Assembly (NCBI GenBank): GCA_000004985.1 | Contig: GG739152.1 | DNA length: 7,225 nt | Reading direction: 5' to 3' (one strand) | DNA from: Naegleria gruberi | Taxonomy: Eukaryota | In this document: piece after piece, positions 1-7,225 of the stretch | How the letters are laid out: each line of letters opens with the position of its first letter | Position numbering within the stretch: position 1 is the first letter of the stretch | Program-made: the position numbers and the translations under genes | The notes under the pieces: model-generated | Database searches by the model: none | Seen by the model: only the letters and a program-made list of their open reading frames with translations | What the model was told of the DNA's origin: nothing

Positions 1-475
1 TCTCTGACCATCCACACAGTTCATACTCCTCTCCCTTTCCTTTTGTAAAAACACCAAAAACCGAAGCTAACAAATAGGAAACAAAGTAAGGCGAAATCTC
101 ATACGAATCCCACAATGTTACTCTCTCACAATAAAATTCATCAGGTATTTGTGAGGTAATATTCTTCAATACAGCAGCCCTCCGATCAGGAGTTATATTC
201 AAATTTACAGTCATGATTGGACTGGTATTCCAACACTTGTTGAAATTCTTCGAGTAGGAAATTTGTTTGGTATATAATAGCGTCATGGGAATACTCTGAT
301 TGAATATTGGTGCAAATCCATTCACTCCATTATGTATCATTCCGAAACTCTTATCCATATAATTGTTATTATTTAATATATTAATAATAATTATCATCAC
401 AACAATGAGTATTATTAAAACAGAAAATGAAACTCTGGGAAATAGTATTTGTGTCCTTGATTGTCGTAGAATCAT
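1..475 (-). CDS. Gene A: 5'-complete, 3'-truncated ORF. 158 codons are visible and it runs off the left window edge. Predicted type-II membrane or secretory glycoprotein: short basic N-terminus, about 20 hydrophobic residues, then a region with four N-x-S/T sequons.
   Basis: Minus-strand ATG at 475..473 in an A-rich context (cacaaaaaaATGatt). An in-frame TAA lies just upstream at 505..503, and there is no stop from 472 down to position 1. I translated the reverse complement of 1-480 segment by segment. Translation: MILRQSRTQILFPRVSFSVLIILIVVMIIIINILNNNNYMDKSFGMIHNGVNGFAPIFNQSIPMTLLYTKQISYSKNFNKCWNTSPIMTVNLNITPDRRAAVLKNITSQIPDEFYCERVTLWDSYEISPYFVSYLLASVFGVFTKGKGEEYELCGWSE... Sequons: NQS, NTS, NIT, NIT. 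It is not in the supplied ORF track, apparently because the ORF has no in-window stop. Confidence 0.6.
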   Translation of the reverse strand, partial: MILRQSRTQILFPRVSFSVLIILIVVMIIIINILNNNNYMDKSFGMIHNGVNGFAPIFNQSIPMTLLYTKQISYSKNFNKCWNTSPIMTVNLNITPDRRAAVLKNITSQIPDEFYCERVTLWDSYEISPYFVSYLLASVFGVFTKGKGEEYELCGWSE

Positions 476-837: not shown

Positions 838-878
838 ATGTCTCAACAAGTAATTGATCTCAACAAGCAACATTTCGA
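838..878 (+). CDS. Gene B: 5' end of a plus-strand CDS. 13 codons are visible before it runs into the N block. Product unknown.
   Basis: ATG at 838-840 in a strong A-rich context (cataaaaaaATGtct), with the TATA box about 95 bp upstream. It reads MSQQVIDLNKQHF and then enters the N run at 879. The ORF-track entries 838..6255 and 854..6235 share this start, but their length is an artefact of N translated as X. Confidence 0.45.
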
Positions 879-3800
879 NNNNNNNNNNNNNNNNNNNNNN
901 NNNNNNNNNNNNNNNNNNNNNNNNNNNNNNNNNNNNNNNNNNNNNNNNNNNNNNNNNNNNNNNNNNNNNNNNNNNNNNNNNNNNNNNNNNNNNNNNNNNN
1001 NNNNNNNNNNNNNNNNNNNNNNNNNNNNNNNNNNNNNNNNNNNNNNNNNNNNNNNNNNNNNNNNNNNNNNNNNNNNNNNNNNNNNNNNNNNNNNNNNNNN
1101 NNNNNNNNNNNNNNNNNNNNNNNNNNNNNNNNNNNNNNNNNNNNNNNNNNNNNNNNNNNNNNNNNNNNNNNNNNNNNNNNNNNNNNNNNNNNNNNNNNNN
1201 NNNNNNNNNNNNNNNNNNNNNNNNNNNNNNNNNNNNNNNNNNNNNNNNNNNNNNNNNNNNNNNNNNNNNNNNNNNNNNNNNNNNNNNNNNNNNNNNNNNN
1301 NNNNNNNNNNNNNNNNNNNNNNNNNNNNNNNNNNNNNNNNNNNNNNNNNNNNNNNNNNNNNNNNNNNNNNNNNNNNNNNNNNNNNNNNNNNNNNNNNNNN
1401 NNNNNNNNNNNNNNNNNNNNNNNNNNNNNNNNNNNNNNNNNNNNNNNNNNNNNNNNNNNNNNNNNNNNNNNNNNNNNNNNNNNNNNNNNNNNNNNNNNNN
1501 NNNNNNNNNNNNNNNNNNNNNNNNNNNNNNNNNNNNNNNNNNNNNNNNNNNNNNNNNNNNNNNNNNNNNNNNNNNNNNNNNNNNNNNNNNNNNNNNNNNN
1601 NNNNNNNNNNNNNNNNNNNNNNNNNNNNNNNNNNNNNNNNNNNNNNNNNNNNNNNNNNNNNNNNNNNNNNNNNNNNNNNNNNNNNNNNNNNNNNNNNNNN
1701 NNNNNNNNNNNNNNNNNNNNNNNNNNNNNNNNNNNNNNNNNNNNNNNNNNNNNNNNNNNNNNNNNNNNNNNNNNNNNNNNNNNNNNNNNNNNNNNNNNNN
1801 NNNNNNNNNNNNNNNNNNNNNNNNNNNNNNNNNNNNNNNNNNNNNNNNNNNNNNNNNNNNNNNNNNNNNNNNNNNNNNNNNNNNNNNNNNNNNNNNNNNN
1901 NNNNNNNNNNNNNNNNNNNNNNNNNNNNNNNNNNNNNNNNNNNNNNNNNNNNNNNNNNNNNNNNNNNNNNNNNNNNNNNNNNNNNNNNNNNNNNNNNNNN
2001 NNNNNNNNNNNNNNNNNNNNNNNNNNNNNNNNNNNNNNNNNNNNNNNNNNNNNNNNNNNNNNNNNNNNNNNNNNNNNNNNNNNNNNNNNNNNNNNNNNNN
2101 NNNNNNNNNNNNNNNNNNNNNNNNNNNNNNNNNNNNNNNNNNNNNNNNNNNNNNNNNNNNNNNNNNNNNNNNNNNNNNNNNNNNNNNNNNNNNNNNNNNN
2201 NNNNNNNNNNNNNNNNNNNNNNNNNNNNNNNNNNNNNNNNNNNNNNNNNNNNNNNNNNNNNNNNNNNNNNNNNNNNNNNNNNNNNNNNNNNNNNNNNNNN
2301 NNNNNNNNNNNNNNNNNNNNNNNNNNNNNNNNNNNNNNNNNNNNNNNNNNNNNNNNNNNNNNNNNNNNNNNNNNNNNNNNNNNNNNNNNNNNNNNNNNNN
2401 NNNNNNNNNNNNNNNNNNNNNNNNNNNNNNNNNNNNNNNNNNNNNNNNNNNNNNNNNNNNNNNNNNNNNNNNNNNNNNNNNNNNNNNNNNNNNNNNNNNN
2501 NNNNNNNNNNNNNNNNNNNNNNNNNNNNNNNNNNNNNNNNNNNNNNNNNNNNNNNNNNNNNNNNNNNNNNNNNNNNNNNNNNNNNNNNNNNNNNNNNNNN
2601 NNNNNNNNNNNNNNNNNNNNNNNNNNNNNNNNNNNNNNNNNNNNNNNNNNNNNNNNNNNNNNNNNNNNNNNNNNNNNNNNNNNNNNNNNNNNNNNNNNNN
2701 NNNNNNNNNNNNNNNNNNNNNNNNNNNNNNNNNNNNNNNNNNNNNNNNNNNNNNNNNNNNNNNNNNNNNNNNNNNNNNNNNNNNNNNNNNNNNNNNNNNN
2801 NNNNNNNNNNNNNNNNNNNNNNNNNNNNNNNNNNNNNNNNNNNNNNNNNNNNNNNNNNNNNNNNNNNNNNNNNNNNNNNNNNNNNNNNNNNNNNNNNNNN
2901 NNNNNNNNNNNNNNNNNNNNNNNNNNNNNNNNNNNNNNNNNNNNNNNNNNNNNNNNNNNNNNNNNNNNNNNNNNNNNNNNNNNNNNNNNNNNNNNNNNNN
3001 NNNNNNNNNNNNNNNNNNNNNNNNNNNNNNNNNNNNNNNNNNNNNNNNNNNNNNNNNNNNNNNNNNNNNNNNNNNNNNNNNNNNNNNNNNNNNNNNNNNN
3101 NNNNNNNNNNNNNNNNNNNNNNNNNNNNNNNNNNNNNNNNNNNNNNNNNNNNNNNNNNNNNNNNNNNNNNNNNNNNNNNNNNNNNNNNNNNNNNNNNNNN
3201 NNNNNNNNNNNNNNNNNNNNNNNNNNNNNNNNNNNNNNNNNNNNNNNNNNNNNNNNNNNNNNNNNNNNNNNNNNNNNNNNNNNNNNNNNNNNNNNNNNNN
3301 NNNNNNNNNNNNNNNNNNNNNNNNNNNNNNNNNNNNNNNNNNNNNNNNNNNNNNNNNNNNNNNNNNNNNNNNNNNNNNNNNNNNNNNNNNNNNNNNNNNN
3401 NNNNNNNNNNNNNNNNNNNNNNNNNNNNNNNNNNNNNNNNNNNNNNNNNNNNNNNNNNNNNNNNNNNNNNNNNNNNNNNNNNNNNNNNNNNNNNNNNNNN
3501 NNNNNNNNNNNNNNNNNNNNNNNNNNNNNNNNNNNNNNNNNNNNNNNNNNNNNNNNNNNNNNNNNNNNNNNNNNNNNNNNNNNNNNNNNNNNNNNNNNNN
3601 NNNNNNNNNNNNNNNNNNNNNNNNNNNNNNNNNNNNNNNNNNNNNNNNNNNNNNNNNNNNNNNNNNNNNNNNNNNNNNNNNNNNNNNNNNNNNNNNNNNN
3701 NNNNNNNNNNNNNNNNNNNNNNNNNNNNNNNNNNNNNNNNNNNNNNNNNNNNNNNNNNNNNNNNNNNNNNNNNNNNNNNNNNNNNNNNNNNNNNNNNNNN

Positions 3801-6220
3801 NNNNNNNNNNNNNNNNNNNNNNNNNNNNNNNNNNNNNNNNNNNNNNNNNNNNNNNNNNNNNNNNNNNNNNNNNNNNNNNNNNNNNNNNNNNNNNNNNNNN
3901 NNNNNNNNNNNNNNNNNNNNNNNNNNNNNNNNNNNNNNNNNNNNNNNNNNNNNNNNNNNNNNNNNNNNNNNNNNNNNNNNNNNNNNNNNNNNNNNNNNNN
4001 NNNNNNNNNNNNNNNNNNNNNNNNNNNNNNNNNNNNNNNNNNNNNNNNNNNNNNNNNNNNNNNNNNNNNNNNNNNNNNNNNNNNNNNNNNNNNNNNNNNN
4101 NNNNNNNNNNNNNNNNNNNNNNNNNNNNNNNNNNNNNNNNNNNNNNNNNNNNNNNNNNNNNNNNNNNNNNNNNNNNNNNNNNNNNNNNNNNNNNNNNNNN
4201 NNNNNNNNNNNNNNNNNNNNNNNNNNNNNNNNNNNNNNNNNNNNNNNNNNNNNNNNNNNNNNNNNNNNNNNNNNNNNNNNNNNNNNNNNNNNNNNNNNNN
4301 NNNNNNNNNNNNNNNNNNNNNNNNNNNNNNNNNNNNNNNNNNNNNNNNNNNNNNNNNNNNNNNNNNNNNNNNNNNNNNNNNNNNNNNNNNNNNNNNNNNN
4401 NNNNNNNNNNNNNNNNNNNNNNNNNNNNNNNNNNNNNNNNNNNNNNNNNNNNNNNNNNNNNNNNNNNNNNNNNNNNNNNNNNNNNNNNNNNNNNNNNNNN
4501 NNNNNNNNNNNNNNNNNNNNNNNNNNNNNNNNNNNNNNNNNNNNNNNNNNNNNNNNNNNNNNNNNNNNNNNNNNNNNNNNNNNNNNNNNNNNNNNNNNNN
4601 NNNNNNNNNNNNNNNNNNNNNNNNNNNNNNNNNNNNNNNNNNNNNNNNNNNNNNNNNNNNNNNNNNNNNNNNNNNNNNNNNNNNNNNNNNNNNNNNNNNN
4701 NNNNNNNNNNNNNNNNNNNNNNNNNNNNNNNNNNNNNNNNNNNNNNNNNNNNNNNNNNNNNNNNNNNNNNNNNNNNNNNNNNNNNNNNNNNNNNNNNNNN
4801 NNNNNNNNNNNNNNNNNNNNNNNNNNNNNNNNNNNNNNNNNNNNNNNNNNNNNNNNNNNNNNNNNNNNNNNNNNNNNNNNNNNNNNNNNNNNNNNNNNNN
4901 NNNNNNNNNNNNNNNNNNNNNNNNNNNNNNNNNNNNNNNNNNNNNNNNNNNNNNNNNNNNNNNNNNNNNNNNNNNNNNNNNNNNNNNNNNNNNNNNNNNN
5001 NNNNNNNNNNNNNNNNNNNNNNNNNNNNNNNNNNNNNNNNNNNNNNNNNNNNNNNNNNNNNNNNNNNNNNNNNNNNNNNNNNNNNNNNNNNNNNNNNNNN
5101 NNNNNNNNNNNNNNNNNNNNNNNNNNNNNNNNNNNNNNNNNNNNNNNNNNNNNNNNNNNNNNNNNNNNNNNNNNNNNNNNNNNNNNNNNNNNNNNNNNNN
5201 NNNNNNNNNNNNNNNNNNNNNNNNNNNNNNNNNNNNNNNNNNNNNNNNNNNNNNNNNNNNNNNNNNNNNNNNNNNNNNNNNNNNNNNNNNNNNNNNNNNN
5301 NNNNNNNNNNNNNNNNNNNNNNNNNNNNNNNNNNNNNNNNNNNNNNNNNNNNNNNNNNNNNNNNNNNNNNNNNNNNNNNNNNNNNNNNNNNNNNNNNNNN
5401 NNNNNNNNNNNNNNNNNNNNNNNNNNNNNNNNNNNNNNNNNNNNNNNNNNNNNNNNNNNNNNNNNNNNNNNNNNNNNNNNNNNNNNNNNNNNNNNNNNNN
5501 NNNNNNNNNNNNNNNNNNNNNNNNNNNNNNNNNNNNNNNNNNNNNNNNNNNNNNNNNNNNNNNNNNNNNNNNNNNNNNNNNNNNNNNNNNNNNNNNNNNN
5601 NNNNNNNNNNNNNNNNNNNNNNNNNNNNNNNNNNNNNNNNNNNNNNNNNNNNNNNNNNNNNNNNNNNNNNNNNNNNNNNNNNNNNNNNNNNNNNNNNNNN
5701 NNNNNNNNNNNNNNNNNNNNNNNNNNNNNNNNNNNNNNNNNNNNNNNNNNNNNNNNNNNNNNNNNNNNNNNNNNNNNNNNNNNNNNNNNNNNNNNNNNNN
5801 NNNNNNNNNNNNNNNNNNNNNNNNNNNNNNNNNNNNNNNNNNNNNNNNNNNNNNNNNNNNNNNNNNNNNNNNNNNNNNNNNNNNNNNNNNNNNNNNNNNN
5901 NNNNNNNNNNNNNNNNNNNNNNNNNNNNNNNNNNNNNNNNNNNNNNNNNNNNNNNNNNNNNNNNNNNNNNNNNNNNNNNNNNNNNNNNNNNNNNNNNNNN
6001 NNNNNNNNNNNNNNNNNNNNNNNNNNNNNNNNNNNNNNNNNNNNNNNNNNNNNNNNNNNNNNNNNNNNNNNNNNNNNNNNNNNNNNNNNNNNNNNNNNNN
6101 NNNNNNNNNNNNNNNNNNNNNNNNNNNNNNNNNNNNNNNNNNNNNNNNNNNNNNNNNNNNNNNNNNNNNNNNNNNNNNNNNNNNNNNNNNNNNNNNNNNN
6201 NNNNNNNNNNNNNNNNNNNN
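879..6220. other. Masked or unsequenced block of 5,342 consecutive N. Its content is unknown.
   Basis: I counted directly: the first n is at 879 and the last at 6220. Gene B enters it from the left and gene C exon 4 enters it from the right, so at least the 3' portions of two convergent genes lie inside. Confidence 0.99.
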
Positions 6221-6586
6221 ATCTGCACCATCTGATTCCATATCAAGCAAATTAATTGCGTCTGCTGAAGGTTGTGTTGCTCTTGTGTCAGGTTTTTTGA
6301 TCCAATCTTTAACAAGTGTTAAAAAAACAACTTCATCTTCTGCAACATAGCTCTGCAATGAAGAGAATTGACCATTGTTGGCTCTGACATGTTCTCTTGT
6401 TGGTGAAGAGGTAGAAGGTTGAATATCTGTTGCTTGAATTGAGGATGGAACCCCTTCTATATTAGAAACTTCTACATTGGAATTCTTCTTTCTTTTTGGC
6501 TTCTCTTTTTTCTTTAATTCTATTAGACTCTTTCTTTTAAAAGAACTCCACAGATTGCTGAATATCTTACTGACATAACAATAGCT
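6221..6586 (-). CDS. Gene C exon 4, visible part (122 codons, phase 0). It continues leftward into the N block. It encodes a stretch resembling a nuclear localisation signal (KRKSLIELKKKEKPKRKKN), an S/T/P/Q-rich low-complexity region and an acidic patch.
   Basis: The minus-strand frame is open from the acceptor TAG at 6589..6587 down to 6221. Translation: SYCYVSKIFSNLWSSFKRKSLIELKKKEKPKRKKNSNVEVSNIEGVPSSIQATDIQPSTSSPTREHVRANNGQFSSLQSYVAEDEVVFLTLVKDWIKKPDTRATQPSADAINLLDMESDGAD... The right-hand ends of ORF-track entries 802..6315 and 860..6358 overlap this real coding stretch. Confidence 0.7.
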
Positions 6587-6641
6587 CTAATTAATTGTTG
6601 GAAAATAATTAATAAATAATTTAAGGATAAACTTCACTTAC
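6587..6641 (-). other. Gene C intron 3 (55 nt, phase 0).
   Basis: On the minus strand it starts with GTAAGT (6641..6636) and ends with aattaaTTAG (AG at 6588..6587). A CCAAC branch-like motif lies 11 nt upstream of the acceptor. Removing it joins exon 3 (ending ...CAA AGT ATT) in frame to the long open frame of exon 4. The alternative ttcAG acceptor at 6559..6558 was tested and gives an immediate in-frame TAA. Confidence 0.55.
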
Positions 6642-6819
6642 AATACTTTGCACGTATTTATATGTATCCGTTGACAATCCATTAACATGTTTTCTGAACA
6701 ATGTTTCACCAAAAGTTAATTGCAGACAATCTTTACATGAACTCATGGCAGTATCATTTTGGGGAATCCCTTTTCGCTTACAGTAAATTCGAATACATTG
6801 CATAACTTCTCTTTTTAGT
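6642..6819 (-). CDS. Gene C exon 3 (178 nt). It encodes a Cys-rich segment with a C-x4-C-x14-C-x2-C arrangement.
   Basis: This is the inner part of ORF-track entry 6621..6848. That entry starts at a TTG (not an ATG), and its last 7 codons (VSEVYP*) are read from the GTAAGT intron. The first exon nucleotide (A at 6819) completes the codon GC|A carried over from exon 2. Exon reading: (A)LKREVMQCIRIYCKRKGIPQNDTAMSSCKDCLQLTFGETLFRKHVNGLSTDTYKYVQSI. Confidence 0.6.
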
Positions 6820-6861
6820 CTATATAAAATCAAATAAATAACTAACAATTTGCTTACTTAC
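6820..6861 (-). other. Gene C intron 2 (42 nt, phase 2). A second donor (GTAAGC) lies 4 nt downstream, giving a tandem donor GTAAGTAAGC.
   Basis: Minus strand: gtaagtaagcaaattgttagttatttatttgattttatatag. The donor GTAAGT is at 6861..6856 and the acceptor tatAG at 6821..6820. The length is a multiple of 3, and removal bypasses the in-frame TAA at 6860..6858. The result joins ...CAA CGA GC to A CTA AAA..., giving ...TQRALKREV.... Confidence 0.5.
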
Positions 6862-6931
6862 GCTCGTTGAGTATCCTTCCATCCCACTGCAGCCTTGGGA
6901 TAACAGTCAGCCAACTTTTCATATGTGGCTT
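6862..6931 (-). CDS. Gene C exon 2 (70 nt), read in the frame that gives (E)ATYEKLADCYPKAAVGWKDTQR(A).
   Basis: This frame is open from 6983 to the intron-2 donor and is the same frame as exon 3. The acceptor is gtttacCAG with AG at 6933..6932. The phase-1 start matches the phase-1 end of exon 1 (G|AA gives Glu). The alternative frame (KPHMKSWLTVIPRLQWDGRILNERK) is also open across this segment, so the frame choice rests on splice phase and a weak codon-usage preference. Confidence 0.45.
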
Positions 6932-7097
6932 CTGGTAAACATGTTATGGTTAATTTAGTCTTCTTCTTTGTTATTAGAATAATTTATGTTGAATAAATGG
7001 TGCTAAACTACTTACTTTTACTGATGGTGATGATGCTGAAATGATGTAAAATTGGCAGTTGATGGAAAAGTTACAAGGTTGATGTTGAATTACTTAC
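6932..7097 (-). other. Gene C intron 1 (166 nt, phase 1). It contains the candidate 20-nt cassette exon at 7035..7016.
   Basis: Donor GTAAGT at 7097..7092 immediately after ATGCCAG. The acceptor is ...aTTAACcATAACatgtttacCAG, which carries TTAAC and ATAAC branch-like motifs 18 and 12 nt upstream of the AG. Confidence 0.4.
7016..7035 (-). other. Candidate 20-nt cassette micro-exon (CATCATCACCATCAGTAAAA) inside gene C intron 1.
   Basis: On the minus strand it is flanked by a consensus acceptor cATTTCAG (AG at 7037..7036) and a perfect donor GTAAGT (7015..7010). Including it would split intron 1 into introns of 62 and 84 nt and shift the downstream frame by +2. See the findings entry for the frame consequences. 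Confidence 0.25.
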
Positions 7098-7104
7098 CTG
7101 GCAT
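7098..7104 (-). CDS. Gene C exon 1: a 7-nt micro first exon (ATG CCA G) carrying the start codon.
   Basis: The minus strand reads ...cacaataaATGCCAG|GTAAGTaattc. The ATG sits in an A-rich context and is followed after 4 nt by a perfect GTAAGT donor. Phase 1 matches the exon 2 frame, predicting an N-terminus MPEATYEKLADCYPKAAVGWKDTQRALKREVMQC.... There are four ACTTAC (minus-strand GTAAGT) sites in the 1,005 readable nt on this side against about 0.25 expected by chance. I cannot exclude a 5' exon further upstream. Confidence 0.3.
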
Positions 7105-7175
7105 TTATTGTGTTTTTTATTGTGTTTTTTTTGATTCGAATTTTCAGTCGAAAGCCAGTTTTTAGACGAAAAAAA
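7105..7175. promoter_or_regulatory. 71-bp head-to-head intergenic region between the start codons of gene C (minus) and gene D (plus). Presumed compact bidirectional promoter and leader region.
   Basis: The minus-strand ATG is at 7104..7102 and the plus-strand ATG at 7176-7178. The interval is T-rich on the plus strand and A-rich on the minus strand, and it contains the tandem 12-mer listed separately. Confidence 0.35.
7107..7132. repeat. Perfect tandem direct repeat ATTGTGTTTTTT x2. The second copy runs into a T8 tract.
   Basis: Read directly: 7107-7118 attgtgtttttt and 7119-7130 attgtgtttttt, followed by tt at 7131-7132. On the minus strand it reads AAAAAACACAAT x2, immediately upstream of the gene C ATG. 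Confidence 0.8.
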
Positions 7176-7225
7176 ATGTCTTTACAAAATAACAAGGAAC
7201 AAGGTATCTATTTGAAAGACGCTGG
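7176..7225 (+). CDS. Gene D: 5' end of a plus-strand CDS. 16 codons are visible before it runs off the right window edge. Product unknown.
   Basis: ATG at 7176-7178 after an A6 run (gacgaaaaaaATGtct). It reads MSLQNNKEQGIYLKDAG with no stop before the window ends. It shares the ATGTCT start with gene B. Support is only start context and an open frame over 50 nt. Confidence 0.35.
   Translation, partial: MSLQNNKEQGIYLKDA

Follow-up and report, generated by a model that had tools for sequence, protein, structure and literature searches.

The window analysed here, a stretch of 7,225 bases, is dominated by a single run of N. The base composition places 5,342 N in one unbroken run at positions 879–6220, which is the sole ambiguous stretch of the window and has no called bases interspersed, so that, as the original prediction stated, this part cannot be read from the window. 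The best reading of the run is a size-estimated gap that separates the two contigs making up a small scaffold of Naegleria gruberi NEG-M. The left contig (positions 1–878) is 878 bp long with 32.1% GC, and the right contig (positions 6221–7225) is 1,005 bp long with 32.5% GC; both lengths lie within the range of Sanger reads. The published N. gruberi assembly is a Sanger assembly, with 33% GC, 40.9 Mb and 1,977 scaffolds.

The window is eukaryotic, its genes are spliced, and their best matches are in N. gruberi. Open reading frames enter the N block from both sides, gene B on the plus strand and gene C on the minus strand, and the two genes are therefore convergent, as originally described. 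The readable part of gene B (positions 838–878, plus strand) consists of an ATG at 838–840, which was also correctly located, 13 codons (MSQQVIDLNKQHF) and 2 further bases before the gap. Gene D (positions 7176–7225, plus strand) starts with an ATG and runs off the right end after 16 codons (MSLQNNKEQGIYLKDA). Gene A (positions 1–475, minus strand) is unannotated and known from its translation; its reading frame of at least 158 codons begins at the ATG at 475–473 and extends beyond the scaffold's left end, and its product has a hydrophobic, signal-anchor-like N-terminal segment. When a chimeric query combining genes A, B and D was searched against 5.8 billion clusters, no protein matched at E ≤ 10, for gene A or for the other two.

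Gene C (positions 6221–7104, minus strand) is the most informative feature. We built its intron-containing model by hand from the window, with exons at 7104–7098, 7035–7016, 6965–6862, 6819–6642 and 6586–6221, the last of which continues into the gap. All four introns are of the GT..AG type. The N boundary at 6221 coincides exactly with a codon boundary of gene C, and the reading frame is still open there, in agreement with the original prediction; the count of at least 207 codons given at that time becomes 225 readable codons once the four introns are removed. The presence of spliced genes on a eukaryotic scaffold had been missed, and since the genes here are spliced, a bacterial-style reading of open reading frames in such windows is misleading. 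A Pfam search with genes A and C assigned no family, no relatives of gene C were found in viral contigs, and the AlphaFold single-sequence model of the related protein NAEGRDRAFT_79192 (P0001) has a pLDDT of 37.

The gene C model matches NAEGRDRAFT_79192 of N. gruberi with about 99% identity, and the assembly contains three near-identical copies of the gene. The two paralogues, NAEGRDRAFT_79192 (193 aa) and NAEGRDRAFT_80659 (P0003, 241 aa, the full form), sit on large scaffolds, one of 530 kb that carries EFC46272.1 and one of 362 kb that carries EFC41441.1. Their splice junctions are identical to those of the window copy wherever they can be compared, and they supply the C-terminus LYSDNGQSDSEEAQQL that is missing from the window. 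Small differences distinguish the copies: the window gene lacks one Gln codon (AEDE-VVFL versus AEDEQVVFL in the paralogues) and has Asp where NAEGRDRAFT_80659 has Ala (SSIQATDIQ versus SSIQATAIQ).

A further copy was recovered, via protein P0004, on the ENA metagenome contig ERZ929261 k127_325338 (L001, 510 bp). This contig matches positions 6221–6399 of the window (minus strand) with zero substitutions across the 179 shared bases, and it differs from the window by a CAA insertion and a frame-shifting 2-nt deletion. It continues past the gap edge for 331 bp that correspond to gap sequence, and there 16 codons are followed by a TAA and an AT-rich remainder; past the gene C stop, this remainder has no open reading frame longer than 40 aa. 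Because its source is an environmental sample, we regard it as a related copy and not as the window locus itself. None of the papers searched mentions PRJEB11402. Taken with the two paralogues, which also show 16 further codons past the gap edge and then a stop, the environmental contig bears out the earlier proposal that the 3′ end of gene C falls inside the block.

The annotation deposited for this locus, NAEGRDRAFT_76782 (P0002, EFC35563.1 / XP_002668307.1), is 109 aa long and is encoded exactly by exons 1–4 of the window plus an intron read-through. It passes through the canonical GTAAGT donor of intron 4 and reads positions 6621–6641 (minus strand) as coding, giving VSEVYP and then a stop, whereas in the paralogue models of 193 and 241 aa the last exon is spliced on and supplies the C-terminus named above. 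A gene finder would be expected to stop early by intron read-through in this way if it could see no stop codon in the last exon, and the reading of 6621–6641 as coding is an annotation artefact caused by the gap. As evidence on the nature of the N run, the truncation is suggestive and not decisive, because gene models vary between copies anyway (that of NAEGRDRAFT_79192 starts at Met50). In practical terms, the NAEGRDRAFT_76782 model represents a multi-copy gene of 241 aa, cut short by the gap.

The sole contig recorded for NAEGRDRAFT_76782 spans 7,225 bp, the same as the window. The window encodes this protein exactly, and no other contig is recorded for it, which makes it very probable that the window represents a small scaffold in its entirety. 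The agreement of the two lengths is in itself also compatible with real sequence that was later replaced by N.

Overall, the N run is most likely an assembly artefact, and we hold with considerable confidence that it is an ordinary size-estimated gap in a small leftover scaffold which the window covers in full. The run consists of N only, the lengths of the flanks fit a Sanger assembly, and the annotation is truncated at the gap. Besides fosmid libraries, JGI Sanger projects used libraries of about 3 kb and of 6–8 kb; gaps written by the JAZZ assembler have non-round estimated lengths. The 7.2-kb span of the two-contig scaffold would be compatible with the 6–8-kb plasmid library. The window thus resembles the mate-pair gaps of the JGI NEG-M assembly in having a single non-round N run between contigs of read length, a total span of about one plasmid insert and an annotation truncated at the gap; none of its observed features departs from size-estimated Sanger scaffold gaps.

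According to this model, the window would be a complete 7,225-bp scaffold of the Sanger whole-genome-shotgun assembly of N. gruberi NEG-M (GCA_000004985), in which two contigs of 878 bp and 1,005 bp would have been ordered and oriented by the assembler from reads of paired clone ends. The run of 5,342 N would then be a placeholder whose size was estimated from the clone insert, neither a measured distance nor hidden sequence. A near-identical multi-copy segment, which takes up at least the right part of the scaffold, is the probable reason why the scaffold was left unassembled and unplaced. Gene C would end 16 codons inside the gap, as in its paralogues, and the remainder would be gene B and intergenic DNA. 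The caveat attached to the original prediction, that the block might be a sized assembly gap and not masked sequence, is accordingly the best-supported reading, while two of its other proposals are not supported. The view of the block as a mask hiding what the window had been selected for fits poorly with the 7,225-bp contig of NAEGRDRAFT_76782, the read-sized flanks and the gene model truncated at 6221; the view of it as a measured 5.3 kb containing the bulk of gene B fits poorly with the nature of a sized-gap length, which is estimated from clone-insert size, and with the fact that no protein with the gene B N-terminus was found. A chance test does not apply to the N run, which is not a statistical feature. 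As the run is most likely an ordinary gap, it offers no hidden biological feature for assessment; more generally, when a small leftover scaffold of a draft eukaryotic assembly contains a run of N, this should not be counted as a hidden system.

Searches with the window sequence gave no sign of a prokaryotic or viral locus: no match was found in the bacterial, archaeal, viral, phage or metagenome collections searched. The exact 41-mer at 838–878 and a 40-mer of gene C were absent from the genome, viral and metagenome contig collections, a megablast search of the left flank against phages gave no match, and the contig index had no entry for the three N. gruberi proteins or for four open reading frames of the window.

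Because gene C is multi-copy in the assembly and also occurs on the environmental contig, the region is repetitive, and the gap may hide a repeat. A more specific form of this idea, in which a recently duplicated segment, or a mobile element, with gene C and a large unannotated gene B lies in the gap and broke the assembly by its repetitiveness, seems to us unlikely. In the unmasked flanks we found neither terminal repeats nor target-site duplications, and comparison of one flank with the other gave short, AT-rich matches of low identity; a scan of the flanks for Rfam families, tRNAs and meaningful inter-flank repeats was also negative.

A mis-join of the scaffold by a chimeric clone, in which case genes B and C would not be neighbours and the gap would correspond to no real interval, is also unlikely. 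The two contigs do behave differently, since gene C has two annotated counterparts in N. gruberi and gene A has none; unannotated open reading frames are, however, common in an annotation dating from 2010, assemblers usually require more than one consistent mate pair for scaffolding, and we saw no positive sign of chimerism.

We consider it improbable that the block is a deliberate mask placed over real, known sequence with a feature of interest beneath. A few stretches of the bacterial and archaeal contig collection are described as masked by N, and the roughly central position of the block between flanks of about 1 kb would suit such a mask, as would the failure to locate the three N. gruberi proteins in the contig index. 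Against it, the flanks match contigs of read length, the window is absent from the bacterial and archaeal contig collection, and the deposited NAEGRDRAFT_76782 is cut short in just the way to be expected of an exon 5 without a stop. In addition, if real annotated sequence lay under the block, a protein with the gene B N-terminus should exist, as a sequenced 5-kb region would have been annotated, and none was found. This last argument must be used with care. A profile search with the 13-residue N-terminus found no protein among 1.84 billion representatives of 50%-identity clusters, and a padded alignment gave no candidate but also missed its built-in control, the 16 C-terminal residues of NAEGRDRAFT_79192. 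Our simulations indicate that E ≤ 10 is out of reach for a lone 13-mer, whereas a stacked alignment attains it, and that with the larger library an E of about 1e-5 would be expected for an exact match to gene B. The failure to find gene B is weak evidence, given that the profile search covered cluster representatives only and that the positive control failed in the padded search.

Hard masking of the RepeatMasker type over a transposable or viral element between genes B and C is very improbable: the three or more nearly identical gene C copies in the assembly, one more on the environmental contig and a reported repeat content of about 5% of the N. gruberi genome would be in its favour, but its right edge cuts the last exon of gene C, so that the mask would begin within a coding exon whose copies are identical on either side and would leave the repeated remainder unmasked, repeat masking usually leaves several patches and not one 5.3-kb block flanked by read-length pieces, and the truncated NAEGRDRAFT_76782 argues that the sequence was already missing at annotation.

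A minor observation concerns the starts of genes B and D, which have the context AAAAAAATGTCT in common; positions 832–849 and 7170–7187 are 89% identical (repeat family D1).

The window contains a single run of N, at positions 879–6220 (5,342 bases), exactly as the original prediction had it, and we consider this run to be very probably an assembly gap. The readable flanks comprise 878 bases (32.1% GC) on the left and 1,005 bases (32.5% GC) on the right. The NEG-M assembly of Naegleria gruberi, a heterolobosean amoeboflagellate, was published as a Sanger assembly of 40.9 Mb in 1,977 scaffolds, with 33–35% GC and about 5% repeats. The window is very probably one whole small scaffold of that assembly. 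The JGI reportedly used 6–8-kb plasmid libraries and wrote estimated gap sizes as non-round figures; two contigs of 878 and 1,005 bp within a total length of 7.2 kb are the expected product of paired end-reads of plasmid clones. All observations fit a gap of estimated size, of the ordinary kind, in a scaffold left over from the 2010 draft assembly, and we see no biological feature to classify.

Scans of the window found no Rfam-type RNA families or tRNAs, a repeat scan found no significant repeats between the two flanks, and the window sequence had no match in phage, viral, bacterial/archaeal or JGI metagenome collections. In appearance the flanks are not prokaryotic.

The right flank has short minus-strand coding pieces lying 42–62 bases apart, and the sequence between them starts with GTAAGT and ends with AG. 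Joining five pieces (exon 1, 7104–7098; exon 2, 7035–7016; exon 3, 6965–6862; exon 4, 6819–6642; exon 5, 6586–6221, up to the N boundary) gives gene C, whose open frame runs for 225 codons right up to that boundary and is, as the original prediction said, still open at 6221. The model matches a single protein cluster of four members, that of the N. gruberi hypothetical protein NAEGRDRAFT_79192 (P0001; 99% identity, E = 1e-109); no Pfam family was found for it, and its single-sequence structure model (pLDDT 37) was unusable. Read by eye, the protein has six cysteines within residues 1–76, is rich in Lys/Arg at KRKSLIELKKKEKPKRKK and ends in an acidic tail, a composition that would be compatible with a nuclear protein.

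The N. gruberi assembly has gene C in three near-identical copies (NAEGRDRAFT_76782, 79192 and 80659). They are set apart by a single Gln codon missing from the window copy, by an Asp in SSIQATDIQ that is Ala in the paralogue P0003 (NAEGRDRAFT_80659), and by one splice choice. The scaffolds that carry P0001 and P0003 are 530,355 bp and 362,555 bp long. These copies suggest that a segment was duplicated recently or that gene C belongs to a mobile unit, and the repetition of gene C could plausibly explain why the scaffold stayed unmerged and its gap open. The 5' exons in the deposited models are very small (7 and 20 nt).

The protein deposited for the window copy, P0002 (NAEGRDRAFT_76782, EFC35563.1/XP_002668307.1, 109 aa), has one recorded contig, of 7,225 bp, exactly as long as the window. 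Its sequence equals window exons 1–4 followed by VSEVYP and a stop, a read-through into intron 4. The large-scaffold models splice exon 4 to exon 5 and end in ...DGADLYSDNGQSDSEEAQQL; unlike them, P0002 ignores a perfectly good GTAAGT donor and runs to the first stop. This is the behaviour expected of a gene model when exon 5 passes into N without a stop codon, and it suggests that the N were already present when the genome was annotated. P0002 is a form of the 241-aa protein of the paralogous locus (P0003) that the gap has cut short. The read-through past the intron 4 donor occupies 6621–6641 on the minus strand.

The second argument comes from gene B, whose plus-strand frame, as the original prediction described, opens at ATG 838 and can be read for 13 codons (MSQQVIDLNKQHF) ahead of the N run. 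With 5.3 kb of real sequence available, an annotated gene B would be expected in the databases. A profile search with the 13 N-terminal residues gave no match among 1.84 billion representative proteins clustered at 50% identity, a level that may hide the true protein; in simulation, an exact match reached about E = 1e-5 in a library three times larger. A chimeric A+B+D-type query and a padded-alignment search gave no candidate either, but the padded search also missed the C-terminal 16 residues of P0001 placed in the query; single-row columns are apparently ignored in word collection, and negatives from such queries are unreliable.

We stop short of near certainty about the gap because both arguments are indirect, the models of the copies vary (that of P0001 begins at Met50) and the 50%-identity representatives may hide a protein. 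A wrong scaffold join, assessed separately from these readings, is unlikely. Deliberate masking of real sequence is improbable, since P0002 behaves as if no exon 5 stop was visible and no protein with the gene B N-terminus was found among the representatives. A repeat hard-mask, with the repeat or mobile element once proposed as its cause, is scarcely credible: the right boundary cuts a coding exon of gene C, the copies are alike on both sides of the cut, and the flanks lack terminal repeats.

What the assembly gap replaces can be estimated in part. The 3' end of gene C does belong there, and judged from P0001 and P0003, which have 16 further codons and a stop, the remainder would be only 51 bases. 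Through P0004, the fourth member of the P0001 cluster, we reached a 510-bp ENA metagenome contig (k127_325338, sample ERZ929261) that aligns to window 6399–6221 with zero substitutions, a CAA insertion and a 2-nt deletion; the insertion is the extra Gln also present in P0001 and P0003. Beyond the match it runs on for 331 bases, in which the 16 codons and a TAA stop are followed by an AT-rich stretch of 280 bases without an ORF of more than 40 aa on either strand. In related copies, therefore, at least 280 non-coding bases follow gene C, and the end of gene B lies farther off. That the block holds the bulk of gene B, as a 1,700-codon gene, is not established, the gap size being an estimate. That the gap hides a duplicated or mobile stretch with gene C and a large gene B missing from the annotation is unlikely, and would be of modest interest if true. 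The match and indels of the metagenome contig mean that its sample contains either a pseudogene copy or an organism very closely related to strain NEG-M; the literature searched made no mention of its study, PRJEB11402. The 2-nt deletion shifts the frame of the last exon of gene C.

Gene A (475 to 1, minus, at least 158 codons) begins with a signal-anchor-like hydrophobic N-terminus; a search of 5.8 billion protein clusters gave no match, and no Pfam family was found. It is either a Naegleria gene that escaped annotation and is truncated by the scaffold end, or no gene at all. It carries several N-x-S/T sites. Gene D starts at 7176 (plus) in a context, AAAAAAATGTCT, shared with gene B: 16 of 18 bases are identical between 832–849 and 7170–7187, and both proteins begin with Met-Ser. 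This likeness probably reflects the A-rich context in which translation usually starts in the organism, and not a repeat.
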